64,000 nt of DNA from an uncultured Methanosarcinales archaeon (GCA_964527395.1 CAZGQD010000005.1:6524-70523), one strand, 5' to 3'. Shown: positions 1-17,582, counted from the first letter of the stretch. Translations and numbers: made by a program. The notes: generated from the sequence alone by a model not told the origin.

Positions 1-1730
1 TTTTTGCTTTTGAGGCTAAGGAACTTGATTCTAGTGATAAAATTAAGATGCGAGCTGCTCTAGTTCTTGCTGCAGTTGTTAAAAAATTGTATCCTAAATC
101 TGAAATTAGTGATTGTGGTTTTTATCATGACCAAGTTTATTTGGATATTTCTGGAATTAAACTGCAGGAGAACAATTTTGGAGCTTTAAAAAAGCAGATG
201 AGAAAATTGATTAGTGCAGGAGATAAAATTAAGAAAGTTGTTAGTTCTAAAGTTGCTAATGATTTGCAAAAAGATATTTTGTCTGACATTGGTAAAGATG
301 GGGTAGCTTATGGACTTGGAGATGTAACTATTGTATCTAGATTTTTAGGTTCTTTGAGTGGTGCTGTTGATTCAATTGGTGCTTTTGAACTAGTTTCATT
401 GGGGTCGGTTTATTGGAAAGGAAATCAGGAGAATAAGCAGCATATGCGTATTCGTTTAGTGGCGTTTTCTGACAAAAAGGGACTTGATGATTGGAAACAA
501 GCATTAAAAGAAGCAGAAGATAGATCGCATCTTAAGATTGGTAAAGAAATGGGATTGTTTGTGCAGTCAAAATTGGTTGGTTCTGGACTTCCGTTAATTG
601 CACCAAAAGGGATGGTTATTCGAAGTGAAGTTGTAGATTTTCTTTGGGAATTGCATAAGTTGAAAGGTTATAAGCGAGTTTGGACTCCACACATTGCAAA
701 GAAAGATTTGTATAAAACTAGTGGGCATTGGGACAAATTTGGAGATGAATTGTTTAAAGTTAAAGGTAAGACTGAAGAGTTTATTATGAAACCTATGAAT
801 TGTCCGCACCATATGCAGATTTTTGATGGTTTTGAGTATAGTTATCGTGATATGCCAATAAGGTTTTTTGAACCAGCTACAGTTTATCGAGATGAAAAGA
901 AAGGACAGCTTCATGGTTTGAGTAGAGTTAGAGCAATCACACAAGATGATGGACATCTATTTTGTCGTGTTCATCAAATAAAAGAAGAAGTTGCTGTTGT
1001 TGTTGGAGTAATTCAAGAGTTTTATCGGACTTTAGGGATGGATAAAGGATATTGGGTCTCTCTTTCAGTTCGAGGTGAAGATAAATCTAAATATCTTGGC
1101 TCAGAGAAAGTTTGGAAAGTTGCTGAGAAGGCTCTTAGTGATGTAGCTAAAGATTTAAAGTTGCCTTTTAAACGAATGGAAGGTGAAGCTGCATTTTATG
1201 GGCCTAAATTAGATTTTATGTTTAAAGATTCTCTTGGACGAGAAAGACAGCTTGGAACTGTACAATGTGATTTTAATTTACCTGAACGGTTTGATTTGAG
1301 CTTTGTGAATGAAAAAGGTGAAAAGGAGCGTCCTGTAGTAATTCATCGTGCTATTTCTGGAAGTTTGGAGAGGTTTATGGGAGTTATTATTGAACATTTT
1401 GCTGGTAAGTTTCCATTATGGCTTAGTCCAGAGCAAGTTAGAATCTTGACAGTAACAGATAGGGGTTTTGAATTTGCAAGTGATCTTTGTTTGAAATTAT
1501 CTAAATTAGGTTTTAGAGTTGAAGTGGATAACAGGACAGAAACTATTGGTAAAAAGGTTCGTGAGGCTCAATTGGATCAGGTGAATTATATTTTGACAGT
1601 TGGTGACAAAGAAATTGATACTGGCTGCATTGCTGTACGTGATCGTGGTACTGGAAAAACTGAATTTGGAGTAGCTGTTGATTCTTTTTTGGCAGATTTA
1701 GTTGCTGAAAGAGATGAGAGGAGGCTTTAG
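1..1730 (+). CDS. thrS: threonyl-tRNA synthetase, 5' end cut by window edge
   Basis: Frame is open from nt 3 (FAFEAKELDSSDKIK precedes first Met at 48). Class II core motifs present: PMNCPHHMQIF, YRDEKKGQLHGLSRVRAITQDDGHLF, HRAISGSLERF. C-terminal anticodon-binding domain. Confidence 0.9.
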   Translation, partial: FAFEAKELDSSDKIKMRAALVLAAVVKKLYPKSEISDCGFYHDQVYLDISGIKLQENNFGALKKQMRKLISAGDKIKKVVSSKVANDLQKDILSDIGKDGVAYGLGDVTIVSRFLGSLSGAVDSIGAFELVSLGSVYWKGNQENKQHMRIRLVAFSDKKGLDDWKQALKEAEDRSHLKIGKEMGLFVQSKLVGSGLPLIAPKGMVIRSEVVDFLWELHKLKGYKRVWTPHIAKKDLYKTSGHWDKFGDELFKVKGKTEEFIMKPMNCPHHMQIFDGFEYSYRDMPIRFFEPATVYRDEKKGQLHGLSRVRAITQDDGHLFCRVHQIKEEVAVVVGVIQEFYRTLGMDKGYWVSLSVRGEDKSKYLGSEKVWKVAEKALSDVAKDLKLPFKRMEGEAAFYGPKLDFMFKDSLGRERQLGTVQCDFNLPERFDLSFVNEKGEKERPVVIHRAISGSLERFMGVIIEHFAGKFPLWLSPEQVRILTVTDRGFEFASDLCLKLSKLGFRVEVDNRTETIGKKVREAQLDQVNYILTVGDKEIDTGCIAVRDRGTGKTEFGVAVDSFLADLVAERDERRL

Positions 1731-1862
1731 GTAGGTTATTTTTTCTTTTGATTTTTTCTTTTTAAGTAGTTTTTTTGTTGCTATTTTGTTTTTTCATTAA
1801 TTTAAGCATAATCTTTATATAGTGAATTGTAGGAAGAGAGGGTACTTTGTTTTAATTTATTT

Positions 1863-1946
1863 GCCGAGGTGGCACAATCTGGTACTGCGCAGGATTGCTA
1901 ATCCTGTTTCCTTCGGGATTTCTGGGTTCAAATCCCAGCCTCGGCG
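1863..1946 (+). tRNA. tRNA-Ser (anticodon GCT), class II with long variable arm
   Basis: Acceptor GCCGAGG/CCTCGGC. Anticodon stem-loop CAGGA-TTGCTAA-TCCTG. Variable hairpin TCC-TTCG-GGA. T arm CTGGG-TTCAAAT-CCCAG. Confidence 0.9.
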
Positions 1947-2044
1947 CTTCTTTTTTTAAATTAAATTCCATTAAAGTTTTGTTCTTTTTTATATTGTTGT
2001 GGTCGGTAGATTTAAATAGGTGAAAAACCTTTTTTTGTTTTAGG

Positions 2045-3697
2045 ATGGTAGGTAAAAATAATTCTTTTTTGGATTCAAAGCAGTTTAAAGTAAGTGTTTT
2101 GGCTGTTATTGTGATACTAAGTGTTTTTGTTTTGTTTAATTTGATTGGTCAAAGTGATGAAGCAATAGTAGGACATGCTGGTGGGGATGCAGATATGGCA
2201 TCAACTTTAACGGATTTAACTGTTGATGTTGATTTGAGTGGTGATTCAGGTGAAACAGAAATAGAAATTCCTGGATTAACTTTTGAAGGGAAAGAGCTTT
2301 GTGAGGATAATGATGGTTATTGGGTAGGTTTATCAGAAGAGAATACTTGTTTTGAGGGAGTTTGTTATGATAAGTTAGATTTTCAAGGTGTGACTTGTGG
2401 AGATACAATCACTGCAGATGGGAAATATATTTTAAAGTCTTCTTGTGTATTATTGCCTGGAGCTGGAGCTAGCCATGGTATTGAAATATTATTAGATGAT
2501 TCAACTACAGAAGTTTTGCTTTATTGTGAGAGTGGAGATACTTTTAGGAATGGATTAAGTAGGGGTTCTCCGAGTGGGATTTATGTTAGGGATTCTAGTA
2601 GTTCTGGAGTGGATCCAAAAGTGACAATTGTTGGCTGTGGGATAGAGGGATTTACTAATGGGGTTTATCTTTCAGGTGTAAGTGATTCTGAATTTGCAGG
2701 TTTGACAGTTACTGATTCAGAAGAAGTAGGGATTTATGCAAATGGTGGCTCAGATAATAATTTTTGTGGGAATAGTATTCAGGATTCAGGAACAAGGGGA
2801 GTTTATTTTTATCAAACAGAGGAGCCAGATTTTCAAGAAAATGTAGTTTATGGATCAGGACTTTACGGAGTATATTTCAGTGAAGTATATGCTTTTGATT
2901 TAAGAGATAATGTAATTACTTCATCAGCTGCAGACCCTTCTTCTTCTTCTTCAGGCAGTGAAGTCTATATTGATTCCTCAGATGAAGGTTATTTTAAAAA
3001 TAATGACTTGTGTGGTTTAGATGGTGCAAAGACGTTAACTTGTTCGTCTAGTACAGGAATTATAGGTGATGGGAACAGCTTTGATTTATATTCTGCTTGT
3101 GATGAGAATTGGCCAGATTTAGAAGATGGGAGTGGCACAGGAGATTATACTGGATGTAGTTCAGGAGTTGGTTATGGGTCAGGAGCTATGTCTGGAACTT
3201 TTGAAATAGATTTGGATAGAGATAATTTTGGCAGTGTTGGAAGTGGTGGTTTAGATTGTGATGATTCAGATGCTTTAGTGAACCCAGATGCTACTGAGAT
3301 TTGTAGTGATGGCGTAGATAATGATTGTGATTCTATTACTTCTGATGATATCAGTGATGGGTTTTGTAGCTGTGCTTCAGGAGAAAGTATGTATTATGTT
3401 GATTTAGATGTTGATGGATATGGTGCAGGAACAGTTAGTTGTCAAAGGACTGGAAGTCCAGGTTATTCTGAATATAGTACTGATTGTGATGATTCTGATT
3501 TTGATGTCAATCCAGGAGCTACAGAAGCTTGTGATTCAGTAGATAATGATTGTGATGGTACTGTTGATGAAGATGATGTTTGTGGTAGTTTCGAAATAAT
3601 TGGAAATGTTTATTATGATGATGAGGTAGTTGATGATGGTGTTTTGGATTTTGATGATGTAAAAAAATTCATAAAGCAGACATATGGGACTAGTTAA
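2045..3697 (+). CDS. anchored surface protein: beta-helix repeats, MopE-type Cys/Asp repeats, C-terminal dockerin/EF-hand-like loop
   Basis: N-terminal TM helix followed by AIVGHAG. PbH1-like repeats (GIYVRDSSSS, GVYLSGVSDS, GIYANGGSDNN). Two motifs of the form DCDDSDxxVNPGAxExCDxVDNDCDG. D-rich C-terminus DDEVVDDGVLDFDDVKKFI. Confidence 0.7.
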   Translation: MVGKNNSFLDSKQFKVSVLAVIVILSVFVLFNLIGQSDEAIVGHAGGDADMASTLTDLTVDVDLSGDSGETEIEIPGLTFEGKELCEDNDGYWVGLSEENTCFEGVCYDKLDFQGVTCGDTITADGKYILKSSCVLLPGAGASHGIEILLDDSTTEVLLYCESGDTFRNGLSRGSPSGIYVRDSSSSGVDPKVTIVGCGIEGFTNGVYLSGVSDSEFAGLTVTDSEEVGIYANGGSDNNFCGNSIQDSGTRGVYFYQTEEPDFQENVVYGSGLYGVYFSEVYAFDLRDNVITSSAADPSSSSSGSEVYIDSSDEGYFKNNDLCGLDGAKTLTCSSSTGIIGDGNSFDLYSACDENWPDLEDGSGTGDYTGCSSGVGYGSGAMSGTFEIDLDRDNFGSVGSGGLDCDDSDALVNPDATEICSDGVDNDCDSITSDDISDGFCSCASGESMYYVDLDVDGYGAGTVSCQRTGSPGYSEYSTDCDDSDFDVNPGATEACDSVDNDCDGTVDEDDVCGSFEIIGNVYYDDEVVDDGVLDFDDVKKFIKQTYGTS

Positions 3698-3723
3698 TTT
3701 ATGATAAAAAAAGGTGTTTTAAG

Positions 3724-5823
3724 ATGGCAAGAAAAAGAAAGGTAAATAAAAAGAAGAGTGCTTCGAAATCGAAGTCTGTTCATAATAATGTGAAGAATAA
3801 AAAAAGTCATTCTTTAAGGCATAGTAAGACTGCAGAAGAACAAAGTACTAAGATTTTTGTTCTAGTGGCTGTTGCTATTGCTGTTTTGGTTCTTGGAACA
3901 CTGTTTTTGTTTACTTATCAGGATCGTGATGCTGCTATTGCAGGAGAAGCTGTAAGATATATTGCTGATTCAGGAACTTGTGGTAGTGGAGAGATCTGTT
4001 TTGGTTATAAAGATGGTGATGGCAATTTAAACCTTGTAAATTATGCAGAAGTAGGTTCTTATGTTGATTATGAAGGAAGTTCCTCTACTGAAATAAATGA
4101 TGTTTTTAATCTAACAGTTTATGTGAACTTAGATGGTTTACAAGAGAATAGTTTTTATACATTTGAGACTCCAATAACTTATCCTCAAGATTTGGTTACT
4201 TTAGAGGAATATTATTTTACTGTGGAAGGACAATTATATCAAGCAGATTCTAGTGTTATTAATGGAGTTATAGGAGCAACAGGAAGTGAAACAGGAGTTT
4301 ATTATTTTAGTGATGATGGTTCAGGTAATGTTAATTTTCAGTTAGCACCAGATTTGAGTTCTTCAGGAGTTAGTTTGAATGATGAAGGTTATTTTGAAGT
4401 AGTTACTTTTAGTTTTAGGGCTGTTGATGGAGCTAAAGGAGATAGTGAGTTAGAGTTTGATAGCTCAAAGGATTTGTTATTTGGGTATGTTGATTCTTTA
4501 AGTGTTTTTGTAGAAAAAGATTTAGCTCCAAATAGTGTTTTTAATGTAGATGTGGTTTCTGATGTGACTTGTCCTTCAGTTTGTTTAGATTCAGATGGGG
4601 ATACTTGGTGCGATAGTAGGGAAATTGCAGAATTTGGAGAAGATACTACTTATCATTTAGATCCTAATGAACATCCATTGGATACAGATTCAGATGGTTT
4701 TTCTGATGATGTTGAAATTTATTTTGGAACAGACGCAGGGATTACTAGTCCTCCAAATCCAGATGCTGATCAGGATTATCCTTTTAATCTAGATTGTGAT
4801 GATTATTTTGATCAAAGTTTGACTTCTGATGCACCAGATGATTTTTTACTTAAAGGAGGAGATTGTGATGATGAAGATGATACTGTTGGTGCAGGAACTT
4901 TATATTTTGAGGATTTAGATAGAGATGGTTTAGGGAATATAGAGTCAGGTGCTTACCTTTGTCCAGATGAAATTACAACAATTCATGTAACAGATAGAAC
5001 AGATAGTTGTGATGATTATGCTGATTCAACAGGTGCTTGTGAATCTTGTGATGCAATCTATTATGAGGATTTAGATGGAGATGGATATGGTTCAGGAACA
5101 GCAGCTTGTTCAGGTGAATTATCTAATCCAGTAGCTGGAGGAACAGATTGTGATGATTCTGATAGTACAATAGGTGCACCAAGTGATTATATAGATTCAG
5201 ATGGTGATGGTTATGGAAATTCAGATATTCTTGTTTGTGAGGGAGTAGATGATGGAACTGATTGTGATGATGCTGTGTACAGTGAAACTAATATTTGTGG
5301 CTCATGTGCTTCAGGAGAGAGTTTACAATATGTAGATTCAGATTCAGATGGTTATGGTGCTGAGGCATCTAGTTGTGTGCTTGATGGTAGTTCAGGATAT
5401 GTTTCAGTTGGTGATTATCAAGGAGAAGATTGTGATGATTCATCTCATGATGTTGATAATGATTGTTCTGTTTCTGCTGCTGTTGAAGCTGCTACAGTTA
5501 CAATTGTTGATTCATCTGGAGCCGAGCTAAGTGGTTTGTCGTCATTAACAGTTGGAGGACAATATACTTTTGATGTGTCTGTGACTGCTGATTCAGACTT
5601 TTCAGATCACTTGTTATTGTTACAAGTTATTTCGAGTAGTACTGGAGAAGTTGAGTTATTAGTGTCTCAGTCTATGCCAGCTTTGACAAGTGGATCTACG
5701 GAATCTATGTCAAGTAGCTTTACACCTACAGCAGGAGGAGATTATACTGCGCAATTGTTTGTTTGGGATGATTGGCCAGCTAGTGGGGGAACTTCGCTTG
5801 TTTCATCAGTGGAGGTGAGCTAA
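3724..5823 (+). CDS. anchored surface protein: cohesin-like N-domain, Ca-loop (DxDxDG) segment, MopE-type repeats, conserved C-terminal beta-sandwich
   Basis: Lys-rich tail, TM helix, then AIAGEA. Beta-sandwich-like segment FNLTVYVNLDG...YFEVVTFSFRAVDGAKGDSELEFDS. DTDSDGFSDD loops. Repeated DLDGDGYG...DCDDSD units. Last ~105 aa are ~60% identical to the C-terminus of 9050..11650. Confidence 0.65.
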   Translation: MARKRKVNKKKSASKSKSVHNNVKNKKSHSLRHSKTAEEQSTKIFVLVAVAIAVLVLGTLFLFTYQDRDAAIAGEAVRYIADSGTCGSGEICFGYKDGDGNLNLVNYAEVGSYVDYEGSSSTEINDVFNLTVYVNLDGLQENSFYTFETPITYPQDLVTLEEYYFTVEGQLYQADSSVINGVIGATGSETGVYYFSDDGSGNVNFQLAPDLSSSGVSLNDEGYFEVVTFSFRAVDGAKGDSELEFDSSKDLLFGYVDSLSVFVEKDLAPNSVFNVDVVSDVTCPSVCLDSDGDTWCDSREIAEFGEDTTYHLDPNEHPLDTDSDGFSDDVEIYFGTDAGITSPPNPDADQDYPFNLDCDDYFDQSLTSDAPDDFLLKGGDCDDEDDTVGAGTLYFEDLDRDGLGNIESGAYLCPDEITTIHVTDRTDSCDDYADSTGACESCDAIYYEDLDGDGYGSGTAACSGELSNPVAGGTDCDDSDSTIGAPSDYIDSDGDGYGNSDILVCEGVDDGTDCDDAVYSETNICGSCASGESLQYVDSDSDGYGAEASSCVLDGSSGYVSVGDYQGEDCDDSSHDVDNDCSVSAAVEAATVTIVDSSGAELSGLSSLTVGGQYTFDVSVTADSDFSDHLLLLQVISSSTGEVELLVSQSMPALTSGSTESMSSSFTPTAGGDYTAQLFVWDDWPASGGTSLVSSVEVS

Positions 5824-7086
5824 ATGAAGAGGCTAAGTTTGTTTTTTTCATTTATTTTTATTTTTGTTTTGTGTAGTTCAGTAATTTTTGCATTAGATGT
5901 AAGTGTAGATGCTAGTTCTAGTCCAGTTGTGATAAGTGGAAGTTGTACTGCTCAAGAAACAGTGATGGTTCAAGTATCTTCAAATGGGATTTTAGCTTAT
6001 ATTGGTGAAACAACAGCAGATTCAAATGGAGATTATTCTTTAGAATTTACATCTACTTCTGAGGGAACTCATTCAATTTCAGTTTCCTGTGATGGCGATT
6101 ATTTAACTGATAGTTTTGATATTGGTTCTACAACAAGTTCTTCTTCTACAAGCGATACAGGTTTTTGGGTCCAAGTTGACTCAAGTTCAAGTTCTGTGGC
6201 AATTACAGGGTTTTGTTCAGAAGGAGATGTAGCAACAATGCAGATCTCTTATGGTGGTCTTTTAGCATTTATTGGTGAAGGAGATGTTGATTCAAATGAT
6301 GAATTCTCTGTGGATTTTACATCTACTGGTGATGGGACCCATAGTATTTATATTTCTTGTGCTGGTGAAACACTTAGTGGTGATTTTTGTGTAGGTAGTT
6401 CTTGTAGTTCTACTCTTGTAACTTTTGGGTCTGTTGATTCAGGAGATGTTACTGAAACAACAGGGACAACAGATGATGGAGGGGATTCAGGAGGTTCTTC
6501 TTCAGGTGGTTCATCAGGTGGAGGAAGGGGTTCATCTTATTATTCAGATGATTCTTCAAGTGGTTCAACTGATACAACTGATGATGGTACGTGTACTGAG
6601 AGTTGGTTTTGTGGTGAATGGACTGAATGTAATGGTGGTCAACAAACAAGAAGTTGTGCTGATGAGCACTCTTGTGGGACTTACTTAGATAGGCCTGAGG
6701 AGACAAGAGATTGTACTGAAGAAGGTAGTAGTAGTTCTAGTTCATCTAGTGGAAGTTCTCAAGGAAGTAGTGGTACAACAAACCCACCTTCTAGGGAAAC
6801 TCAATATGTTCAAGAAACTAGCTTTATGGATCCAGTATACTTCTTTTTTGCAGAGAATTGGTTGTTGGTTCTAATTGGAGTTTTTGTTTTGTTGGTATTA
6901 ATTGGAGGGATTGTATTCTTTCTAAAATATCGTGAGCACCATGCTCCTGCAGCAAATATGGATGAATTGCACGGTTATATCGCTTCAGAAAGGGAAGCAG
7001 GAATGACTGATCAACAAATTGAGACGAGTTTAGTTGAAAGTGGTTGGGCCAAATCTGAGGTTGATCAAGGTTTGGGAATAAATTGA
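5824..7086 (+). CDS. secreted/type I membrane protein with two Ig-like tandem repeats, S/G linkers, TSP1-like Trp/Cys module, TM helix and short cytoplasmic tail
   Basis: Signal-like N-terminus LFFSFIFIFVLCSSVIFA. ~90-aa internal repeat (VVISGSCTAQE...THSISVSCDG versus VAITGFCSEGD...THSIYISCAG). CTESWFCGEWTECNGGQQTRSC motif. TM LLVLIGVFVLLVLIGGIVFF. Confidence 0.65.
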   Translation: MKRLSLFFSFIFIFVLCSSVIFALDVSVDASSSPVVISGSCTAQETVMVQVSSNGILAYIGETTADSNGDYSLEFTSTSEGTHSISVSCDGDYLTDSFDIGSTTSSSSTSDTGFWVQVDSSSSSVAITGFCSEGDVATMQISYGGLLAFIGEGDVDSNDEFSVDFTSTGDGTHSIYISCAGETLSGDFCVGSSCSSTLVTFGSVDSGDVTETTGTTDDGGDSGGSSSGGSSGGGRGSSYYSDDSSSGSTDTTDDGTCTESWFCGEWTECNGGQQTRSCADEHSCGTYLDRPEETRDCTEEGSSSSSSSSGSSQGSSGTTNPPSRETQYVQETSFMDPVYFFFAENWLLVLIGVFVLLVLIGGIVFFLKYREHHAPAANMDELHGYIASEREAGMTDQQIETSLVESGWAKSEVDQGLGIN

Positions 7087-7113
7087 GAGATAATATTAAA
7101 TGAGGATGTTTAG

Positions 7114-9048
7114 ATGGCAAAAGGGCAAGTTAATGATTCAAAGAAAATTTTTGTAGGTTTATTTTTTGTGTTGGTTTTAATAGGGATTGTTGTCATTGGA
7201 GCATCCTTGTTTTCAGAATCAGATGGAGCTATTGCAGGTCAAGCTATAAATTATAACTCAGAAGGTGAAGTTTATGAAATAAGTGGGTCAGATAGTTGTG
7301 GAGCAGAACTTGATATTGAAGGGGCAACTTATGTTATTTCAGCAGATTTAGATTGTACTAGTGTAGTAGATTCTCCTGGTTTGAATGTGATTGCAGATGA
7401 AATTGAGTTATATTGTGAGGAAGGTGTTACAATAATTGGGCCTTCTGAGGGAGATTATGCTGGTATTTTATTAAGTGAAGGAAAGGATGTAGAAATATAT
7501 GGATGTAATATTGAAGGATTTAAGAATGGCCTTTATTTGGATACTGATTTTGAATCAGTAGGAGTATATTATGGGTCAGTAAGTAATAGTGATGCTGAAG
7601 GAATTTATATCGATTCTTTTAGTGAGAGCTATTTTGAATCAGTTTTAATAAGTAATGCAGGAGCACAAGGTATTTATTTAAGTGAAAATACAGAAGGTGT
7701 TATTTTTGTGGATATTTCAATTAGTGGTAGTAGTGCAGAAGCAATTAACATTGCTTCAGAAGGGAACATTTTGAATAATATTCACATTTCTGATGATAAT
7801 GGGTATGGAATTATGGTTTCTGCAAGTAATAATGAATTAAATAATGTAGTTAGTTGTGGTTTGGATTTAGGATGTCATAGTGGTTTGACAGGTTTATTAG
7901 GTTCGGGCAATTATTTTAGTAATGTTGGAGTTGATTGTGATAGTGGTTGGCCTAAATTGAATACAAATTATTATTTATGTGAAGATGTTGAGGTTAGTTG
8001 TGATGATGGTGGAGATAATGATTTAGATGGTGCTTTTGATTCAGAAGATTCAGATTGTATCTGTGATGATGGTACAATTAAACAATATTATGAGGACTCT
8101 GATGGTGATGGATATGGGGAATATTCTTCAGGTCCGGTATGTTCAAGTGATTTAAGTAACCCTGTAGAAGATGGAACTGATTGTAATGATTTAGATGAAG
8201 AGATTAACCCAGGGGAGGCTGAAATAATCTCTGATGGCATAGATCAAGATTGTAGTGGTGTAGAGTTAGTTTGGTCAGATCTTTCTTCTCAAGATGAGTG
8301 TTCTACTTTTAATGGGCAATGGGATTCTGAAACAAGTTCTTGTTCTCCAGTATCAGATGGTGCTAATTGTGAAAATCCTTCAACTTGGTATACTGATTTT
8401 GATGGAGATGGATATACTTCTGGAGGATCGGAAGTTTGTAGCCAACCAGAAAATACTATTGATTATTCATTGGGTGAAGATTGTGATGACAATGATGGTG
8501 GTGTTCAAGGAGAAAATACTTGGTATACTGATGGTGATGGAGATGGATTTACATCAGGGTCATTGGAAGCTTGTCAGCAGCCAGAAAATACAATAGCTTC
8601 TAGTAAAGGTGAAGATTGTGATGATGGAAATTCTGGAGAAAGTGAAGCTAGCTATTATACAGATGAAGATAGTGATGGATATGGGGATAGTGATTCAGGA
8701 GTTTTATATTGTTCTGATTCAAGTGATGTGAATAATCCAACTATGACTGGAGGAGATTGTAATGATAATGATGCTGATCAGAGTCCTGGTTTGCAAGAGA
8801 TCTGTAGTGATGGTAAAGATAATAATTGTGATGGGAGCATTGATGAAGCAGATGATTGTTTAGATCTTAGTGGTGTAGATATTTCTGAGATTGATGAAGA
8901 TGAGTTCAATGAGGAGATGTTAATGAATTTAGGCGTAGAAGTTACAAGTGGAAGTCCTTATGAGGGGTATGATTTAAATGATGATGGGTACTTGACTCTT
9001 GAAGATATTAAAGAGTATATACGTGCAAAATTAGGAGGGAGCAGTTAA
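7114..9048 (+). CDS. anchored surface protein: beta-helix repeats, MopE-type repeats, C-terminal dockerin/EF-hand-like loop (paralog of 2045..3697)
   Basis: TM helix then AIAGQA. PbH1-like repeats (GIYIDSFSES, GIYLSENTEG, GIMVSASNNE). Repeated DSDGDGYG...DCNDxDxxxxPG...DNNCDG. C-terminus YDLNDDGYLTLEDIKEYI. Confidence 0.7.
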   Translation: MAKGQVNDSKKIFVGLFFVLVLIGIVVIGASLFSESDGAIAGQAINYNSEGEVYEISGSDSCGAELDIEGATYVISADLDCTSVVDSPGLNVIADEIELYCEEGVTIIGPSEGDYAGILLSEGKDVEIYGCNIEGFKNGLYLDTDFESVGVYYGSVSNSDAEGIYIDSFSESYFESVLISNAGAQGIYLSENTEGVIFVDISISGSSAEAINIASEGNILNNIHISDDNGYGIMVSASNNELNNVVSCGLDLGCHSGLTGLLGSGNYFSNVGVDCDSGWPKLNTNYYLCEDVEVSCDDGGDNDLDGAFDSEDSDCICDDGTIKQYYEDSDGDGYGEYSSGPVCSSDLSNPVEDGTDCNDLDEEINPGEAEIISDGIDQDCSGVELVWSDLSSQDECSTFNGQWDSETSSCSPVSDGANCENPSTWYTDFDGDGYTSGGSEVCSQPENTIDYSLGEDCDDNDGGVQGENTWYTDGDGDGFTSGSLEACQQPENTIASSKGEDCDDGNSGESEASYYTDEDSDGYGDSDSGVLYCSDSSDVNNPTMTGGDCNDNDADQSPGLQEICSDGKDNNCDGSIDEADDCLDLSGVDISEIDEDEFNEEMLMNLGVEVTSGSPYEGYDLNDDGYLTLEDIKEYIRAKLGGSS

Positions 9049-9049
9049 A

Positions 9050-11650
9050 ATGGCAAGGAGAAATAAAAAGAAGTCTGGTAAATCTGTTTTACCACCTTTG
9101 TTACATGAAGGTCATGGTGAAATGAATAAGGCTTTTGTGCTTGTTATTGTGAGTATTGCTTTGATATTTTTTGGAGTATTATTGATGTTTGTTTTAGATA
9201 AACCAGAAGGGCCTTTGGCAGGACAAGCATATTATGTAGATTTAGTTGGTTGTCCAGATGATACTTTTTGTTTTGAATATGTGGATCCTAGTGAAGAAGG
9301 GGCTTTGACTGGTGTTTCTTCTGCATTAACGCTTGCTCCAAGTGAGGATTTTACTTTAAAAGCAGTTTATCAGTCAAGTGTAGCAGTTAGTGATGTGGCA
9401 GTTGGAGAGATAATTGTTAGTTTTGATCCAAGTTATTTGAGTTATGGAGGAATAAGTTCTTTGTTTGTTGATGAGACAAGTTATTCAATTCAAGAGGAAG
9501 ATAATTCTGGAGATAGTGTTTCAGATACTTTGGTGATCTCATTTTGGGATTTAGATGCTGCATTGTCTTTAGTGTCTGGAAAGAATGATCTTTTTCAGAT
9601 TGATTTTAGTGTTTTGTCTTCTCTAAATGTAGGGGACGTATCTACCGTTAGTTTTGATAGTAATAATTATATTCAAAGTTATGATAGTTCTAGTAATTTG
9701 TTTGTGGATGTTGCAAGTTCAGGGCAGCAGAATGTAGATATTTCTGTTGTTGCAGCTGAAGGAACTGTGAAAGAATTAAGTTGTGGAGATAGTTTAAGTG
9801 ATTTTTCTTCTTATGATGAGTTTACTATTTCAAGTAATGGTCTTGATTGTAGTGGAAATGGTTTAAATTTAAATGTTGAAGATATTAAATTAGACTGTGC
9901 AGGAGCTACTATCTTGGGTGGAAATACAGGTTATGGTCTTTATGTAAGTGCCTCTGATGTTGAAGTGAGTAATTGTATAATTGATGGTTTCGCATATGGG
10001 ATTTTCTTTGATTCTTCTTCTTCAAATAATGTTTTTAATTCTATTGAAGTTTCAAATAGTGGTCAAAGAGGAATTGATGATAACTCAGGTGGAAGTAACA
10101 GTTATAGTGACATTGTTGTTAGTGATGTTTCTGGAAGTACAGCTTTACATGTTAGTTCAAGTAGTAATACTTTTTCTAATTTAGGAATAAATAGAGCAGG
10201 TAATAATGGAATTTATGTAATTGCTTCAAATACGTTTAGTCAAGTTTCTGTAGTTGATTCAACAAGTAAAGGAATTTATGTAGGAGGAGGTTCAAGTGCC
10301 TTTAGTGATGTTTTTATTATGGGAAGTGGGGGAGAAGATATATATTTAAGTTCAGATGATAATGAATTTAATTCAGTAATTGCTTGTGGAGATAGTTCTG
10401 AAAATTTGTTTTGTACATCAGAGTTGTCAGGATTGAGTGGCTCAGAAAATTATTTTGTTAGTGTTTCCACTGATTGTGATGTAACTGGTTTAAGTTATTC
10501 TGCTTGCGAGGTTAATGAAGTTAGTTGTAGTGATGGAGTAGATAATGATGGAGATGGAACTATAGATACAGATGATTCAGATTGTCAAAGTGTTTGTAGT
10601 GATAGTGGAGAAGCAATTTATTATGCAGATGTAGATTTTGATGGTTATGGAGATGCTTCAACTGGTCCAGCTTGTATGTCGGATTTTACTGGTGATTATG
10701 TAGAAGATGATACTGATTGTAATGATAATGATGCTTCAATTTATCCTGGAGCTGTAGAAGTGATTTATGATACAATTGATCAGGATTGTGATGGATTGGA
10801 TTTAAGTTATGGGGATTTAACTGTTGAATCTGATTGTGTTGCTGAAGGAGGTACATGGGATTCTACTAATAGTGATTGTATTGCTCCAACTGAAGGAGCA
10901 GATGCTACTGTAGGGAGTGATGCTGATTTAGATGGTTATTATTCTGAAGATACTGGAGGAGATGATTGTAATGATAATGATGCTTCAATTTATCCTGGAG
11001 CTGTAGAAGTGATTTATGATACAATTGATCAGGATTGTGATGGATTGGATTTAAGTTATGGGGATTTAACTGTTGAATCTGATTGTGTTGCTGAAGGAGG
11101 TACATGGGATTCTACTAATAGTGATTGTAATGAGCCATCTACTGGGCAAGCTTGTACATCATACACTTGGTATTATGATTCAGATGGAGATGGATATGGA
11201 GATCTAGATGTAACTACGGAAGGATGTGATCAACCACAAGATTATGTGAGTAATTCAGATGATTGTGATGATTCTGAAACTGATAGTTCAAATGTTTGCT
11301 CTGATTATGGTGGTGCTTCAGTAGGATTAGTAGATTCTTCTGGAAATTCAGTTGATTTATCTTCTGATTCTTTAACTGTTGGTGAGGAATACATAATTTT
11401 TGCTGAAGTTAGTTCAAGTGATGGTTTTGCTGAACATCTTTTACTTTTACAGGTGGTTTCAGATACCAGTGGGGAAGTTGAATTACTTGCTTTTCAGTCA
11501 ATGCCAGGTATAGCTGTAGGATCAAAAGAATCAATTAGTAACAGTTTTACACCAACTAGCGGTGGGACTTATACTGTGCAGTTATTTGTTTGGGGAGATT
11601 GGCCAGCTAATGGAGGAGGATCTTTGATTCCAAGTGTGACTGTTAGTTAG
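9050..11650 (+). CDS. anchored surface protein: cohesin-like domain, beta-helix, MopE-type repeats, conserved C-terminal domain (paralog of 3724..5823)
   Basis: Basic tail, TM helix, then PLAGQA. Cohesin-like pattern FTLKAVYQSS...LFQIDFSVLSSLNVGDVSTVSFDS. PbH1 repeats. Exact internal 55-aa duplication. C-terminal GEVELLAFQSMP...YTVQLFVWGDWPANGG. Confidence 0.7.
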   Translation: MARRNKKKSGKSVLPPLLHEGHGEMNKAFVLVIVSIALIFFGVLLMFVLDKPEGPLAGQAYYVDLVGCPDDTFCFEYVDPSEEGALTGVSSALTLAPSEDFTLKAVYQSSVAVSDVAVGEIIVSFDPSYLSYGGISSLFVDETSYSIQEEDNSGDSVSDTLVISFWDLDAALSLVSGKNDLFQIDFSVLSSLNVGDVSTVSFDSNNYIQSYDSSSNLFVDVASSGQQNVDISVVAAEGTVKELSCGDSLSDFSSYDEFTISSNGLDCSGNGLNLNVEDIKLDCAGATILGGNTGYGLYVSASDVEVSNCIIDGFAYGIFFDSSSSNNVFNSIEVSNSGQRGIDDNSGGSNSYSDIVVSDVSGSTALHVSSSSNTFSNLGINRAGNNGIYVIASNTFSQVSVVDSTSKGIYVGGGSSAFSDVFIMGSGGEDIYLSSDDNEFNSVIACGDSSENLFCTSELSGLSGSENYFVSVSTDCDVTGLSYSACEVNEVSCSDGVDNDGDGTIDTDDSDCQSVCSDSGEAIYYADVDFDGYGDASTGPACMSDFTGDYVEDDTDCNDNDASIYPGAVEVIYDTIDQDCDGLDLSYGDLTVESDCVAEGGTWDSTNSDCIAPTEGADATVGSDADLDGYYSEDTGGDDCNDNDASIYPGAVEVIYDTIDQDCDGLDLSYGDLTVESDCVAEGGTWDSTNSDCNEPSTGQACTSYTWYYDSDGDGYGDLDVTTEGCDQPQDYVSNSDDCDDSETDSSNVCSDYGGASVGLVDSSGNSVDLSSDSLTVGEEYIIFAEVSSSDGFAEHLLLLQVVSDTSGEVELLAFQSMPGIAVGSKESISNSFTPTSGGTYTVQLFVWGDWPANGGGSLIPSVTVS
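10715..10880 (+). repeat. copy 1 of a perfect 166-bp in-frame direct repeat inside 9050..11650
   Basis: gattgtaatgataatgatgcttcaatttatcctgg...tactaatagtgattgta is identical at 10964..11129. Start-to-start offset is 249 nt (83 codons). Confidence 0.9.
10964..11129 (+). repeat. copy 2 of the perfect 166-bp in-frame direct repeat
   Basis: Identical to 10715..10880. Encodes DCNDNDASIYPGAVEVIYDTIDQDCDGLDLSYGDLTVESDCVAEGGTWDSTNSDC a second time. Confidence 0.9.
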
Positions 11651-11714
11651 AATATCTGTGAATAAAATATTATTTTATTTTTCTTATTTAGTTCTTTTTT
11701 GAGAAATAAAGAAG

Positions 11715-11789
11715 TAGCGAGGGGAAGATTTGAACTTCCGATCTCTGGGTTATGAGCCCAGTGGGCACTCCTGACTGCCCCGCCTCGCT
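11715..11789 (-). tRNA. initiator tRNA-Met (anticodon CAT)
   Basis: Reverse complement reads AGCGAGG-CG-GGGC..GCCC-A-CTGGG-CTCATAA-CCCAG-AGATC-GGAAG-TTCAAAT-CTTCC-CCTCGCT-A. Has the A1:U72 pair and three G:C pairs closing the anticodon stem, as in archaeal initiators. Confidence 0.85.
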
Positions 11790-12188
11790 GTGTACTTTTG
11801 AGAAATGATTTGTTTTAAAAAGCTTTGCTTTGTTTAGGGGTTTTTTTTGCTTTTTTCTTCTAAAGTTTTATTAAGAAAAATGGTATGATTCAATTGTTAT
11901 GGTATATAATAGAGGTTTTTTAACATTTTTGTGATTTTTGTTTTGGCTAGTTCATTTTATTTCTGGTTGTTCAGTTGAGAATGGAAAGGATATAGATCTT
12001 CCAGGAGCAGGAAATTTGCTTGATGAGGTACTTGTTGCAAAAGCAATGGGAATAAATGCAAGGTATTCTTATGATTAAAATGATGCAATTAGTTTATGCT
12101 TATTATTTGGTTGAAGGTAAACTGTATTCAGTTAATTTGATTTTTAATTTATTAATTTTTATCAACAAGTTTATATACGAGAAAATAG

Positions 12189-13151
12189 ATGCTTTTTGTT
12201 ATGGTTGGAGTAAATAAAGTTACGGATTCTAGTAAACGTTTTTGGATAGTTTTTGGATCTATTTTTGCAGCTTTGTTCTTTTTTTTGGCCCTATTTTTTG
12301 TATTTATAGGGACCTTAGTTTCTGGAGGTCAAGAAAGTTATTCAGGAAATGTAGCAGTGATTTCTATTGAGGGAGCAATTGTTGGAACTAGTGATTCTTC
12401 TGCTTTTGGTGGGGGGTCTTTGAATTCTCTTGATTACGTTGAACTTATTGAAAGTGCTAATTTGGATGATTCTATTGAAGCAATTGTACTTGAAATTAAT
12501 AGTCCAGGTGGAAGTGCTGTTGCTTCTGATGAAGTTGCACAAGCAGTAATGCTTAGTTCTAAACCTGTTGTTGCGCAGATTCGTGAGGTGGGTGCATCAG
12601 GAGGTTATTGGATTGCAAGTAGTGCAGATTATGTTATAGCTAATAGAATGTCCATTACAGGGAGTATAGGTGTGATTAGTAGTTATCTTGAGTTCACAGG
12701 TTTAATGGAAGAATATGGTGTTGCTTATGAGCGATTAGTAGCTGGTGAGAGCAAGGATATTGGTGTTCCATTTAGAGAACTTGCTGATGATGAGCGTGAG
12801 ATTTTACAAAGAAAACTTACAGTTATACATGACTATTTTATTGATGCTATTGCAGCAAATAGAGGTTTAAATAGAAAAGATGTAGTTAATTTGGCTACAG
12901 GGGAGTTTTATTTAGGTGTTGAAGCACTTGAATTAGGTTTAGTAGATGAATTAGGGTCTGCAATTGAGGTTGAACAGTACCTTTATGACGTTGTAGGTTT
13001 GGAATTTGTAGAATTTGTTAGTTTTGTACAAGAACCTAGTTTTTTAGATGGGTTTTTTGGGGTACTTAATAAAAGATCATTTAATGTAGGATTAGGAATT
13101 GCAGCTGGTTTGGAAGAAGATGTTGTTTCAGATATGTCTTTTATTGTATAA
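12189..13151 (+). CDS. sppA: signal peptide peptidase SppA (S49 family, 36K type)
   Basis: N-terminal TM helix. Motifs EINSPGGSAVAS and GASGGYWIASSAD. The second ATG at 12201 lies ~24 nt from a TTTATATA box and may be the true start. Confidence 0.8.
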   Translation: MLFVMVGVNKVTDSSKRFWIVFGSIFAALFFFLALFFVFIGTLVSGGQESYSGNVAVISIEGAIVGTSDSSAFGGGSLNSLDYVELIESANLDDSIEAIVLEINSPGGSAVASDEVAQAVMLSSKPVVAQIREVGASGGYWIASSADYVIANRMSITGSIGVISSYLEFTGLMEEYGVAYERLVAGESKDIGVPFRELADDEREILQRKLTVIHDYFIDAIAANRGLNRKDVVNLATGEFYLGVEALELGLVDELGSAIEVEQYLYDVVGLEFVEFVSFVQEPSFLDGFFGVLNKRSFNVGLGIAAGLEEDVVSDMSFIV

Positions 13152-13217
13152 ATGGTTTTTATTGTTTGAAATCATTTTTAATTATATGTTTGGTAAGAAA
13201 ATCATTTTTTAGGGGTT

Positions 13218-16200
13218 TTGAAGAAGATGAAGATAAATAATAATCTTGGGAAAAGTATATTTGTATCTTTTGTTTTGAGTGTTTTAGTTTTATGTTCTTT
13301 ATTAGTTTCTTCAGCTGTAGATAGTGAACAAACATATGTTGATAGTAAAGTAATAAGTGAATTTGATGATGAATCTGAAGTTAGAGTACTTGTTAAATTA
13401 AAGGATGATTCAACTGATGCTGCTGAAGAATTTGTTTCAGATTTGGCTTTTGATGTAGAAGCAAAGAGTTCAAATAGTGATTTATTAGGTATTTTAGGTG
13501 TTGAAGAAAAAAATTCTAATTTGGATGAAGGGGATGTTGATGTTGAGAAAGTTTTTGAAGAAAGTTCCGCTGTGGTTTTGACAATTCATGAAGAAGAAGC
13601 ACTTGATTTGTTGATGGAAGATTCTGATGTTGAAGGAATTTACTATGATTATCCTGTTCAAGCATTTTTAGATACAAGTGTTGCACAAATAAATGGAGAT
13701 GATGTTTGGGGTCTTGATTTAGGTTTTGATTTAACTGGTGTTGGTCGTTCAGTTTGTGTAATAGATACTGGAATTGATTATACTCATAGTTCTCTTGATG
13801 GATGTAGTCCTGTGAATTATACAACTAGTGGAGATATAGAAACACTTAGTACTGCAGTTGAATCTGATCATGATTATAGTAACTCTGAAGATGTAACTTA
13901 TACAATTAATATGAGTGGGTATTCAAATATTGCAATTCATTTTAGTAACATCAGTTTAGAAACTCTTGATGCAGGTGATGCTACAGATAGAATCTATGTT
14001 TATAATGAAGATAATGAAACTGTTGCGGTTTATAAAGGAGTTCAGTCAGATATCTGGACGCCATCATCTAATGGATCTATTATGTATGTTCGATTGGTAA
14101 CTGATGGATCTGTAGTTGATTATGGTTTTGTGGTTGATAAAGCAATAAATGGGACTACAAACACTACTGTAAATTGGACTGATTGTCCTCGAATAGCTGG
14201 AGGTTATGATTTATATAATGATGATTCTGATCCTTATGATGATCATGGTCATGGAACCCATGTAGCAGGAATTGTTGGGTCTAACAGTACAACATATATG
14301 GGTGTTGCGCCTAATTCAAGTTTGGTTGCTGTAAAAGTATTGGATTCAAGTGGAAGTGGGTATAGTAGTGATATTGCTGCAGGTGTAGATTATTGTGTGA
14401 ACAATCAAGACAAATTTGGAATTGATGTTATTAGTATGAGTTTAGGTGGAAGTACAGAATATGATTCAGAGTGTAGTTCAGATTTGATAGCCCCTTCAAT
14501 TAAGCGTGCTTATGATGCTGGTATTGCGGTGGTTGTAGCTACAGGTAATGATGGTGCTAGTGACGGTGTTGCTGCTCCTGCGTGTGCTCCTTATGCTATC
14601 CCAGTTGGTTCTACTGATTCAGATAGTACAATTTCGTCTTTTTCTAATGTAGGGAATTTGTTGTCACTTTTGGCACCAGGTTCTTCTATTACTTCTACTT
14701 TTGCTACTGTTGATGGTGCTGGTTTTGGAGCTTTATCAGGAACAAGTATGGCTACACCACATGTTTCTGGGGCTTTTTTGTTGTTTCAACAGTATGCACG
14801 TGAAGTTCATGGAGCTGCGTTTGATCCTTTGGCTGTTGAAAAAAGGTTTAATTCAAGTGGGACTTTTGTAAATGATACTGCAAATTCAGGAAATAATTTT
14901 AATGAAATAGATGTTTTGGCTGCACTTAAACCGCAAATAACTTTTGGAGATTTGGTTGTAAATGATTCAAGTAGTCAAGTAGAACATTATGTGTTTGTAA
15001 ATGTTAGTTCGGATGTAAATTTAAGTATGGCTTTGTTAGAATGGGACCATAGTAATGGTACTTTTGAAAATATTACAATGACTCAAGAGAATGAGACTCA
15101 ATTTGTTTACAATATGACTGGACTTAAAAGTGGTTTAGATTATTTTGCAGTTTATGGAAATGATTCTTATTTGATGGGGGAAACAGAGTTACGTGATGTA
15201 ACAATTATTTCTGATTTGAAGGCTGCTTTAAATAATCCTTTGAATAATAGTGTTCATGCAAGTGGATTTTATGTTAATTTGTCATTTTTGTCTAACCAAA
15301 CTAATTTAAGTTATGCTAATGTTAGTATTTTTAATAGTAGTTCTAATGAAGTAGTTCTTGTAGGTGGATCTGCTGATTCTATTTGGGCTGCAAGTTATAA
15401 TTTTAGCTTTTTGTTTAATATAACAAATTCGTCTTTTGCTCATGGTAATTATACTTTGCTTTATTTTGCTAATAACAGTGAAGGGGAAGAATTTTTAGAA
15501 AATACCAGTTTGTATATTGATCTTGTTGATCCTAGTTTGTCTACTGTTTCATCATCTGATGTACATGTTAATGTTAGTGATACTGTTTTGTTTCAAGTTA
15601 ATGTGACAGATGATTTTGTGAATGAGAGTTATGTATATTTTGAAAGTAATTTTACTGGAAGTTTTGTTAATTATTCTATGACAACAACTGATAATTATAC
15701 TTATAATTATAGTTTAGATGGTTTAGGTAACTTAAGTGGTTCAGAAAAAGTTGGTTATTCTATTAATGCATATGATAAAGCTGGTAATGGCGTTGTTAGT
15801 AGTTCTGCTACTTTTACAGTTCAAAACAATGCTGTAGATTATGTAAATATTACTAGTCATGATAATGGGACTCAGATTGAGTTAGGAGCCCTTGTTAATT
15901 ATACTGTAGATGCAACAGACAATGATAGTGATTCATTTACTTATGAGTGGAATTTTAGTGATGGAGATTCTAATGTGAATTATTCTGATCAGAATGTGTC
16001 TTATGCTTTTAGTAATATGGGTGAAAATACTATCTTTGTTAGGGCAGATGATGCTAATAGTACTTTGATGTATAATATTACGGTCTATGTAAATGATACA
16101 GTAGGACCAAATATAAGTTCTTTGACAGTGAGTAATATTAGTACTAGTTCTGGAGTAGCAGAAGCTCAGACTGTGCGGGCTACAGGTGCTGATTTGAATA

Positions 16201-16892: not shown

Positions 16893-16978
16893 TAGTTTTT
16901 TTGTATTTGTTTGGATTAAAAAATATGTTTTCTAAGAGAGATAATCTTTTAAAGAGTTGAAATGATTGTTTTTTTAAA

Positions 16979-17296
16979 ATGAATGGTTTGAAGAAGATTG
17001 TTAATGAATTAGGTGTACCAAGAGTTGTTGGTTTTTCAGCAGTTGCTTTAGGTTCATTAGGTGTTGGTTTTTATGTGGGAGTAAGTAATTCTGAATCATT
17101 AGGAGAATTAGTAGGTTCAGGAGTAGTTTTAAGTTCTGTTTTAGGAGCTAGTTTGGCTCAATATGAATCAATGAATCCGTCTGATGGAAAAGGTTTTGCC
17201 CCAGCTGTGGTTGGAGGAATTGTAAGTGGGGGAGCTTCTGGAGCATTAGTTACAGGAGGCTATGTAATGGGAAAAGTAGTGAATTATTTTTCTTAA
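16979..17296 (+). CDS. small Gly/Val-rich membrane protein, unknown function
   Basis: 105-aa ORF with hydrophobic Gly-rich segments. No recognisable motif. Confidence 0.4.
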   Translation: MNGLKKIVNELGVPRVVGFSAVALGSLGVGFYVGVSNSESLGELVGSGVVLSSVLGASLAQYESMNPSDGKGFAPAVVGGIVSGGASGALVTGGYVMGKVVNYFS

Positions 17297-17337
17297 TTTT
17301 GAAAATTCTTTAGTTGAGGTCTTGGTGACAGAAAAGC

Positions 17338-17345
17338 TTATAAAG
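17338..17345 (+). promoter_or_regulatory. TATA box for the L41e gene
   Basis: aaagcTTATAAAGg lies 24 nt upstream of ATG 17369, the same spacing seen at other leaderless genes in this window. Confidence 0.5.
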
Positions 17346-17368
17346 GAATGACTGACCAGGAGAGATAG

Positions 17369-17476
17369 ATGAAACGAAGTAGTAGACGTTGGAAAAAGAA
17401 AGGCCAAATGCGTTGGAAGTGGCAACGTAAGAAAATGAAAAAGGCTAAGCGTAGACGAAGGCTTCGAAGCGGTTAA
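17369..17476 (+). CDS. rpl41e: 50S ribosomal protein L41e (35 aa, below the ORF-track cutoff)
   Basis: Translation is MKRSSRRWKKKGQMRWKWQRKKMKKAKRRRRLRSG. The KRSSRRWKKKG.MRWKW core matches archaeal L41e as I remember it. Confidence 0.75.
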   Translation: MKRSSRRWKKKGQMRWKWQRKKMKKAKRRRRLRSG

Positions 17477-17562
17477 AATTTTGTTTTATTTTTGGAAAAT
17501 TTCTTATATTTTTGTTATTCTAGAGATATTGCTGCTTTTCGTCGACAAAGAAGAATTTCAAA

Positions 17563-17582
17563 AAGGGAAAGCTTTATAAATA
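17563..17582 (+). promoter_or_regulatory. candidate rRNA operon promoter (purine-rich BRE plus TATA)
   Basis: agggaaagcTTTATAAATA lies ~220 nt upstream of the 16S 5' end and is the only strong TATA element in the leader. Confidence 0.5.

Follow-up and report, generated by a model that had tools for sequence, protein, structure and literature searches.

Can an archaeon hold its surface proteins together by cohesin-dockerin pairing if none of these proteins is matched by the standard models of either module? The question is raised by five adjacent genes (g1 to g5) in a stretch of 64,000 nucleotides (nt), CAZGQD010000005.1:6524-70523, deposited under an uncultured Methanosarcinales archaeon; this whole stretch is referred to here as the window. 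An earlier note on the same sequence had read dockerin-like tails and cohesin-like N-terminal domains in alternation along the cluster, and had proposed a duplicated two-component module that could self-assemble into a cellulosome-style scaffold for host attachment. In the reading that we favor, with a probability of about 0.55, the five genes are one operon of a marine DPANN archaeon (Woesearchaeota/Nanoarchaeota type) that would build a Ca-dependent cell-surface assembly held by cohesin-dockerin pairing. Taking its parts separately, we regard the presence of cohesin and dockerin modules in the operon as very probable, the binding of adjacent modules to each other as evenly balanced, and a role in host attachment as less likely than not. 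The proposed module could be upheld for one pair: dockerin-type tails on beta-helix proteins beside a cohesin-type N-domain are supported, indirectly through homologues, a modeled fold, and synteny, for g4/g5, whereas the g1 tail is half a dockerin and the g2 N-domain is not demonstrably a cohesin. All three peptide strings that had been quoted for the tails and the cohesin-like segments are present in the translations.

The open reading frames (n = 5) are codirectional on the + strand and span 2045-11650, with successive gaps of 26, 0, 27, and 1 nt, which agrees with the 0 to 27 nt given before. Between g1 and the end of g5 the TATA-like TTTAAATA-type box has no further + strand match, and an oligo-T tract is located between g5 and the tRNA-Met gene. 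Taken together, the lone box ahead of g1 and the oligo-T tract fit a single transcription unit.

Cohesin and dockerin modules of the g4/g5 pair

The g5 N-domain had a sole close homologue in a search of 5.8 billion proteins, P0001 (TARA; 60% identity, E = 8.5e-54), which passes the Pfam Cohesin model with 26.7 bits against a cutoff of 24.1. An exhaustive profile search with this domain added P0004, a bacterial type IX secretion system (T9SS) protein that scores 31.5 bits with the same model, matches PDB cohesins, and aligns with the g5 N-domain along its whole length (global alignment z = 12 against shuffles). As a single sequence, the domain, like the N-domain of g2, found nothing in the PDB; the three-sequence profile of its family (A2) matched the Acetivibrio cellulolyticus PDB cohesin 5nrm_A (E = 0.004). 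An AlphaFold2 (AF2) model of the domain (predicted local distance difference test [pLDDT], 71; predicted template modeling score [pTM], 0.70) was all-beta, with the flattened beta-sandwich (jelly-roll) of cohesins. When this model was used in a Foldseek search of the PDB, the top 17 matches were all cohesins (E = 5e-7 to 3e-5; template modeling [TM] scores, 0.48 to 0.72). The g5 N-domain is, as judged by its homologues and modeled fold, a cohesin.

The tails of g1 and g4 became interpretable through a sister locus (L008; contig JABHRS010000019.1 of the metagenome-assembled genome [MAG] SI039_bin19), whose threonyl-tRNA synthetase (ThrRS) is 66% identical to that of the window. It was found by a ThrRS-anchored locus scan, the only related-locus scan that succeeded; scans of genome and metagenome contigs with the cohesin profile and the C-domain profile returned nothing. 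The order in L008 is ThrRS, tRNA-Ser(GCU), three beta-helix proteins, a g2-like protein, and a g3-like protein, so that the linkage of the genes in a relative, which had been suggested as a check, is confirmed. Each of the three beta-helix proteins has a cleavable signal peptide and a C-terminal two-repeat dockerin, and Dockerin_1 was the top Pfam match of all three isolated tails (31.5, 26.9, and 14.9 bits, two of which pass the cutoff of 22.9).

Against a hidden Markov model (HMM) of these L008 tails, the g4 tail scored 21.5 bits with both segments aligned, a score reached by 0 of 5000 shuffles. The g1 tail scored 9.7 bits (10 of 5000 shuffles) and aligned over the second segment only. A profile of all five tails aligned end to end with PDB dockerins (6kg9_A, 2y3n_B, and 1daq_A) and also with EF-hand proteins, and the g1 and g4 tails resemble each other more than the whole proteins do. 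In segment 1 of the g4 tail the loop is decayed, with 11 residues, while segment 2 has the canonical Ca loop DLNDDGYLTLED and a helix after it. Since two of the syntenic L008 tails pass Pfam and the g4 tail aligns with this group, sequence comparison argues that g4 carries a divergent two-segment dockerin and g1 a degenerate half-dockerin that is a remnant only. The claim of dockerin-like tails thus stands for g4, and for g1 it is reduced to one half with a noncanonical loop. No other such tails were present in the rest of the window (52 kb), and the g4 tail had no homologue in the 5.8-billion-protein search.

The g2 N-domain is the positional counterpart of the g5 cohesin and shares with it the leader type and a C-x5/6-C-F-x-Y-x-D start, beyond which no similarity between the two could be detected. 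While the 5.8-billion-protein search gave no homologue, the N-domain of the 1000-amino-acid (aa) g2-like protein of L008 is homologous (z = 4.3, 0 of 1000 shuffles) and is the only homologue found. From its position and homology, the g2 N-domain may be the equivalent of a cohesin. The operon has been remodeled quickly between species, L008 having three dockerin genes and one receptor where the window has alternating pairs. With three secreted, unanchored dockerin proteins followed by one anchored receptor, L008 fits the classical logic best, and this arrangement makes the g2-type N-domain the prime candidate receptor there. The g2-like protein itself (L008 17231-20233) contains ∼550 residues of repeated acidic domains without a Pfam match between its N-domain and its MopE-like and C-terminal domains.

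A candidate surface assembly and its alternatives

In the proposed assembly, g4, and g1 in a decayed form, would be the cargo: extracellular beta-helix proteins with Cys/Asp-rich (MopE/TSP3-like) putative Ca-binding repeats and a dockerin at the end. The anchors would be g5 and probably g2, each fixed in the membrane through a transmembrane helix at the N terminus, with a cytoplasmic tail that is strongly basic. The module that comes first outside the cell, adjacent to the membrane, would be the cohesin (for g5 shown through homologues and fold, for g2 presumed), and the last one an Ig-like domain such as is found at the membrane-proximal end of a thaumarchaeal S-layer protein; g3 would be a coconserved single-pass membrane protein with Ig-like domains. 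The g4 dockerin would bind the cohesin of g5, which is encoded 1 nt downstream, and g1 would bind g2, both in a Ca-dependent manner, with g1/g2 being a decayed or diverged second pair. The beta-helix arms would thereby be tethered at the cell surface, where they may act as adhesins or bind or cleave polysaccharides, directed toward a host cell or a particle.

Several results weigh against this assembly. No window protein matches Pfam Cohesin (PF00963) directly, even at E <= 10 and whether searched whole or as the isolated N-domains of g2 and g5, and the g1 and g4 tails have no Dockerin_1 (PF00404) match at E <= 10; the earlier note had itself named missing cohesin and dockerin profile hits as speaking against its proposal. 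When the g4 tail is searched alone, its best matches are EF-hand models (EF-hand_6, E = 0.001) and, in the PDB, EF-hand proteins. The D5/G6 loop positions are gone from its segment 1, and g1 keeps a single degenerate segment; the two tandem F-hand segments of ∼22 residues (a 12-residue Ca loop plus a helix) that make up a dockerin are intact in the L008 orthologues and in neither g4 nor g1.

The g2 N-domain adds further points on this side. Its comparison with cohesin profiles was not significant (A2 hhalign, both local and global); in an HMM test with shuffles it ranked 51 of 3000, and its global alignment gave z = 1.6. Neither the profile of the g2 and L008 N-domains, compared with the cohesin profile and the PDB, nor the comparison of the g2 N-domain with a five-sequence cohesin HMM that included PDB cohesins gave a significant match. 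AF2 modeling of the domain from a mixed alignment reached only pLDDT 36, so that the Foldseek matches of this model carry no meaning. Of the cohesin-like N-domains first proposed, that of g5 stands and that of g2 is a candidate.

Furthermore, g1 and g4 have the same long hydrophobic leader as g2 and g5 and may therefore be membrane anchored themselves, needing no dockerin for their retention. The operon was seen in one relative only, other Woesearchaeota/Nanoarchaeota loci having no such operon downstream of ThrRS. Host attachment, plausible as it would be for a DPANN cell, has nothing that speaks to it directly.

A role in the cell's own envelope is a serious rival, given the S-layer-type domain, and we consider it possible though on the doubtful side. 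The proteins would then form an S-layer-associated or pseudoperiplasmic scaffold in which cohesin-dockerin contacts only cross-link the cell's own envelope, with no host role. The domain in question comprises ∼110 aa at the C terminus of g2, g5, and the L008 protein (L008 ∼19850-20230) and belongs to no Pfam family; its profile matches residues 1627-1718 of the Nitrosopumilus maritimus S-layer protein NmSLP (PDB 8c8k; E = 1.1e-5), in the last of its Ig-like domains. This tenth Ig-like domain (D10) was not resolved and lies in the pseudoperiplasm; the speculation of its authors is that the S-layer is attached to the envelope through it (PMC11153153). The extreme acidity of the operon proteins (15 to 22% Asp+Glu) is also like that of S-layer proteins, NmSLP included, and the neighboring SppA-type and membrane-anchored S8 proteases would fit secretion and processing. 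However, NmSLP is a lattice-forming array of ten Ig-like domains, of which g2 and g5 share only the terminal one while their other modules differ; the combination of a tandem Ig array with D10, typical of S-layer proteins of ammonia-oxidizing archaea, is absent from g2 and g5, and no S-layer family was matched. The locus also changes fast between sister species and within the population, which is more typical of interaction or adhesin loci, although an envelope role would still be compatible with it.

According to a second alternative, which we consider unlikely, the tails are generic single EF-hand or F-hand Ca modules that stabilize the proteins or dimerize tail to tail (g1 with g4, or as homodimers), the partner of the g5 cohesin being encoded elsewhere. 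EF-hands usually function in pairs, and this habit would suit such dimers, as would the count of canonical loops (one in g4, zero in g1). The preference of the isolated g4 tail for EF-hand models extends to EF-hand_6, EF-hand_7, and EF-hand_1. A PDB sequence search with it returned mainly EF-hand proteins, among them 1cta (E = 0.61), the troponin C site III homodimer peptide, and dockerin-bearing scaffoldins only at E ∼ 1. Yet both segments of the g4 tail can be aligned with dockerins that pass Pfam and hold the orthologous place in L008, the profile of the tail family matches solved dockerins end to end, and the cohesin supported by homologues and fold is encoded next to g4.

Many right-handed beta-helix and NosD-type domains are carbohydrate active, and in the classical cellulosome it is the catalytic subunits that are tagged with dockerins. 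A true enzyme-displaying, cellulosome-like complex, in which the beta-helix domains of g1, g4, and g5 would be surface-docked polysaccharide lyases or hydrolases degrading host or environmental glycans, would follow the same logic. We nevertheless hold it to be distinctly unlikely: Pfam and NCBIfam scans gave no matches to glycoside hydrolases (GH), polysaccharide lyases (PL), or carbohydrate-binding modules (CBM), a PDB search with the beta-helix region of g4 found no solved enzyme that resembles it at E <= 1, and one cohesin per anchor protein leaves no room for a multienzyme scaffoldin.

For the D10-like domain of g2 and g5, two roles are conceivable: anchoring in the envelope or imitation of an S-layer domain of a host. 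If the latter is taken to its end, the operon would be the host-docking apparatus of a marine DPANN episymbiont on an ammonia-oxidizing thaumarchaeon. The D10-like domain would then imitate the domain by which the host's S-layer protein is anchored in its envelope, and would bind to the pseudoperiplasm or S-layer of the host or become inserted there. Exchangeable beta-helix "grappling" subunits would be loaded onto this anchor by operon-encoded cohesin-dockerin pairs, among them an equivalent of the cohesin fold in g2 and L008 that had gone unrecognized. This is a long shot. Chance resemblance arising from low-complexity acidic sequence, with no specific interaction modules, is suggested by the highly biased composition and the missing direct Pfam matches but is largely refuted already by the shuffles of the g4 tail, the z score of the g5 N-domain with P0004, a fold search dominated by cohesins, and a gene order kept in a relative whose dockerins pass Pfam; we give it hardly any credence.

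If pairing within one operon is taken as the favored reading, its closest known counterparts are archaeal. The existence of cohesins and dockerins outside cellulosomes, Archaea included, has been on record since 1999 (Bayer 1999, Peer 2009, and Haimovitz 2008, all cited in PMC9012536). Archaeal cohesin-dockerin pairs bind specifically, and many are encoded by anaerobic methanotrophic archaea (ANME), whose cell surfaces they have been proposed to organize (PMC9012536); in ultra-small Omnitrophota, non-cellulosomal dockerins have been suggested to be adhesins (PMC10066038). Like the systems of Archaeoglobus fulgidus and ANME-1/-2 (Chadwick et al. 2022), the operon comes from an archaeon that is no cellulose degrader and has its modules on proteins that are secreted or at the surface, with a single cohesin or few per protein and no large scaffoldin; for those systems, too, an organization of the extracellular space and cell-cell contact have been proposed. 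In contrast to them, the operon modules are too divergent to pass Pfam directly, the cargo consists of beta-helix and MopE-type Cys/Asp repeats rather than S-layer domains or substrate-binding proteins, the protein with the cohesin is anchored through a transmembrane helix at its N terminus, the putative partners lie side by side in one operon, and the lineage is DPANN. In full-text searches of a literature collection, no description of cohesins or dockerins from a DPANN archaeon came up.

With bacterial type I cohesin-dockerin anchoring in Acetivibrio and Clostridium (PDB 5nrm, 4uyp, 6kgc, and 5lxv), the system shares the fold of the g5 N-domain, the two-F-hand dockerin of the L008 tails (decayed in g4), and a cell-proximal cohesin as in anchoring scaffoldins. 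It differs in having no glycoside hydrolases, CBMs, SLH domains, sortase signals, or multicohesin scaffoldin, and in the loss of the first Ca loop in g4 and of half the module in g1. A cellulosome combines a multicohesin scaffoldin with dockerin-bearing carbohydrate-active enzymes or CBMs, and here no protein has more than one cohesin. The cellulosome-style scaffold first proposed was therefore overstated, and the operon is, to judge from its sequence, a divergent non-cellulosomal cohesin-dockerin system. What is unusual about it is the combination of a single membrane-anchored cohesin, a beta-helix and MopE cargo, partners adjacent in one operon, and a half-decayed dockerin.

The attachment of DPANN archaea to hosts and surfaces is largely unexplained and has few molecular candidates, and the locus provides a compact and testable one. 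Residues 583-644 of g4, residues 61-238 of g5, and the three L008 dockerins are modules that can be assayed for Ca-dependent binding; should binding fail, the locus would be a fast-evolving family of acidic beta-helix surface proteins. Since divergence hides the modules from standard annotation, the use of cohesins and dockerins in small-celled archaea may be undercounted. That the C termini of g2 and g5 resemble the last domain of a thaumarchaeal S-layer protein was not expected and offers a lead to envelope anchoring or to host identity.

Architecture of the five proteins

The positions of the genes and of their modules are given in Table 1.

Table 1. Features of the g1-g5 cluster and its flanks, numbered from the first nucleotide of the window
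Feature	Position	Strand	Description
tRNA-Ser(GCU)	1863-1947	+	Neighbor, not part of the system; the order ThrRS, tRNA-Ser, operon is also found in the relative L008
TTTAAATA, archaeal TATA-like box	2011-2018	+	26 nt upstream of the g1 ATG; read directly from the sequence; putative promoter
g1, 550 aa	2045-3697	+	Hydrophobic anchor/signal at residues 14-35, AIVGHA motif, right-handed beta-helix at ∼150-308, two MopE-type Cys/Asp motifs, short C-terminal tail
g1 tail, residues 515-550	3587-3694	+	Apparent degenerate half-dockerin; similarity to the L008 dockerins is confined to their second F-hand segment; noncanonical Ca loop (E-V-V-D-D-G...)
g2, 699 aa	3724-5823	+	Lys/Arg-rich N-tail at residues 1-43, transmembrane helix at 44-65, AIAGEA motif, all-beta N-domain, Asp/Cys-rich DxDxDGYG/DCDD repeats, C-terminal Ig-like domain
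g2 N-domain, residues 77-283	3952-4572	+	Positional counterpart of the g5 cohesin; homologous to the N-domain of the L008 1000-aa protein
g2 C-terminal Ig-like domain	5482-5820	+	Homologous to the 10th (C-terminal) Ig-like domain of NmSLP
g3, 420 aa	5824-7086	+	Type I membrane protein: signal peptide, Ig/Filamin-like repeats at residues 24-101 and 113-191, Ser/Gly linkers
g4, 644 aa	7114-9048	+	N-terminal hydrophobic anchor/signal, AIAGQA motif, beta-helix (NosD/Beta_helix), MopE-type Cys/Asp repeats, predicted C-terminal dockerin
g4 predicted dockerin, residues 583-644	8860-9045	+	Segment 1, DLSGVDISEID...MLMNLG; segment 2, DLNDDGYLTLED followed by IKEYIRAKLG
g5, 866 aa	9050-11650	+	Basic N-tail, transmembrane helix at residues 28-49, PLAGQA motif, predicted cohesin, beta-helix, MopE-type repeats, C-terminal Ig-like domain
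g5 predicted cohesin module, residues 61-238	9230-9763	+	Homologues passing Pfam; predicted fold
g5 beta-helix core, residues 292-416	9923-10297	+	Weak Pfam Beta_helix match; strong paralogy to g4
In-frame duplication in g5	10714-11140	+	Two 178-nt copies (10714-10891 and 10963-11140) with 98% identity at a spacing of 249 nt; an 83-aa MopE unit is thereby doubled
g5 C-terminal Ig-like domain (NmSLP-D10-like)	11315-11647	+	55% identical to the g2 counterpart
tRNA-Met(CAU), initiator type	11714-11789	-	A1:U72 pair and GGG/CCC anticodon stem; neighbor on the opposite strand

The gene order had been described as two protein types that recur around g3. Paralogy of g1 and g4 (29% over 546 aa) and a common C-terminal stretch of ∼400 residues in g2 and g5 (38%) bear this out in part, but g5 contains a beta-helix as well and is, among its paralogues, most strongly similar to g4 (34% over 615 aa, E = 3e-86). 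By sequence, the family is a mosaic in which g1 resembles g4, the C-terminal 400 residues of g2 resemble g5, and the body of g4 resembles that of g5. The expected NosD/beta-helix matches were found in g1 and g4, where both Beta_helix and NosD exceed the Pfam gathering cutoffs; g5 reaches 22.3 bits with Beta_helix, under the cutoff of 25.9, and is not matched by NosD, and g2 has no Pfam match at all.

MopE motifs, thought at first to be carried by all of the proteins, are limited to g1, g4, and g5, which score 71, 61, and 64 bits with PF11617, over its gathering score. The model is absent from g2 and g3, and a regular-expression search found only truncated DCDD half-motifs in g2 and none in g3. 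Against the acidic double-disulfide repeat NF033662, g5 reached E = 9.5e-8 and 31.7 bits, under the curated cutoff of 41 bits. While the DCxDxDxxxxPGxxExCDGxDNDCDG-type units of g1, g4, and g5 are like those of MopE-type proteins (PF11617 and NF033662), in the operon they are spacer repeats between the beta-helix and the dockerin or Ig-like domain, and copper chemistry is unsupported.

All four large proteins open with a 22-residue hydrophobic helix followed, ∼5 residues on, by an A-[IL]-[AV]-G-[QEH]-A motif (2162-2179, 3934-3951, 7228-7245, and 9212-9229), which may be a lineage-specific processing or sorting site. In a 1187-aa beta-helix protein of the window (product of 41096-44659, - strand), the same position is occupied by LLTGAAV. 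The L008 protein p4 has AVAGQA, and the L008 dockerin proteins have ordinary signal peptides instead. Only g2 and g5 have long Lys/Arg-rich N-tails ahead of the hydrophobic helix, which argues for anchoring with the N terminus inside. A PGF-CTERM-like C-terminal sorting signal was considered for the tails and rejected because they have no hydrophobic helix.

The description of g3 as an Ig-repeat transmembrane protein held up, with a signal peptide, two weak Ig/Filamin-like repeats (Pfam matches to Filamin/Big are weak only), and a C-terminal transmembrane helix (residues 346-367). A Cys-rich module of the form WxCxxWxxC lies at 257-297, and the cytoplasmic tail, 53 aa long, is conserved; L008 has an orthologue of g3. 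The module (CxxxWxCxxWxxCxxGxQxRxCxxxxxC, with TSP1-like spacing; 6592-6714) has no Pfam match and recurs in otherwise unrelated surface proteins here and in relatives, with further copies in the product of 41096-44659 (-), in L008 20230-21381 (two copies), and in the locus L021.

The in-frame duplication in g5 is absent from a 99.8%-identical population variant (L002), whose product has 783 aa. The duplication is thus recent, and the repeat number of g5 varies within the population, where the process is ongoing. Near-identical operon DNA recurs in several marine metagenome assemblies.

Genomic setting and neighboring genes

The cluster lies between tRNA-Ser(GCU) and a tRNA-Met gene whose A1:U72 pair and GGG/CCC stem mark it as initiator type. 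The tRNA flanking looks incidental, since the order of ThrRS, tRNA-Ser, and operon is kept in the relative and there is neither an integrase nor a break in composition. A tRNA-targeted mobile island was rejected on these same grounds. The window has ∼35% G+C, and its composition is uniform around the locus.

An archaeal rRNA operon (16S-tRNA-Ala-23S, 17800-23110) identifies the genome as archaeal. The window ThrRS is nearest to those of MAGs labeled Woesearchaeota, Nanoarchaeota, or "archaeon SI039," which makes an assignment to DPANN (of the Woesearchaeota/Nanoarchaeota type) reasonable on sequence grounds and is in line with the DPANN-type organism suggested earlier. Beyond these relatives, ThrRS (48-1730) is 50 to 54% identical to ThrRS of many candidate phyla radiation (CPR)/Patescibacteria genomes; it is a bacterial-type enzyme common to both groups of ultra-small organisms.

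Directly downstream of the operon, two protease genes occupy 12189-16892. The product of one is a signal peptide peptidase of the SppA type (S49); the other encodes an S8 subtilase of 1224 aa that has CUB/PKD domains and is anchored by a transmembrane segment at its C terminus. Processing of the surface proteins is a possible role for both.

GC skew on the + strand was 0.31 to 0.48 in 2-kb windows over 1-18000 and stayed positive throughout the 64 kb, even at minus-strand genes. Coding rich in Asp, Glu, and Gly explains part of this skew, and its window-wide sign suggests a replication-strand effect. The 23S rRNA gene contains a group I intron at 21754-22081 (Rfam RF00028, 67.7 bits). A 126-nt Rfam tRNA match at 53098-53223, uncalled by ARAGORN, directly precedes tRNA-Ser(GGA) and probably represents a tRNA with an intron.

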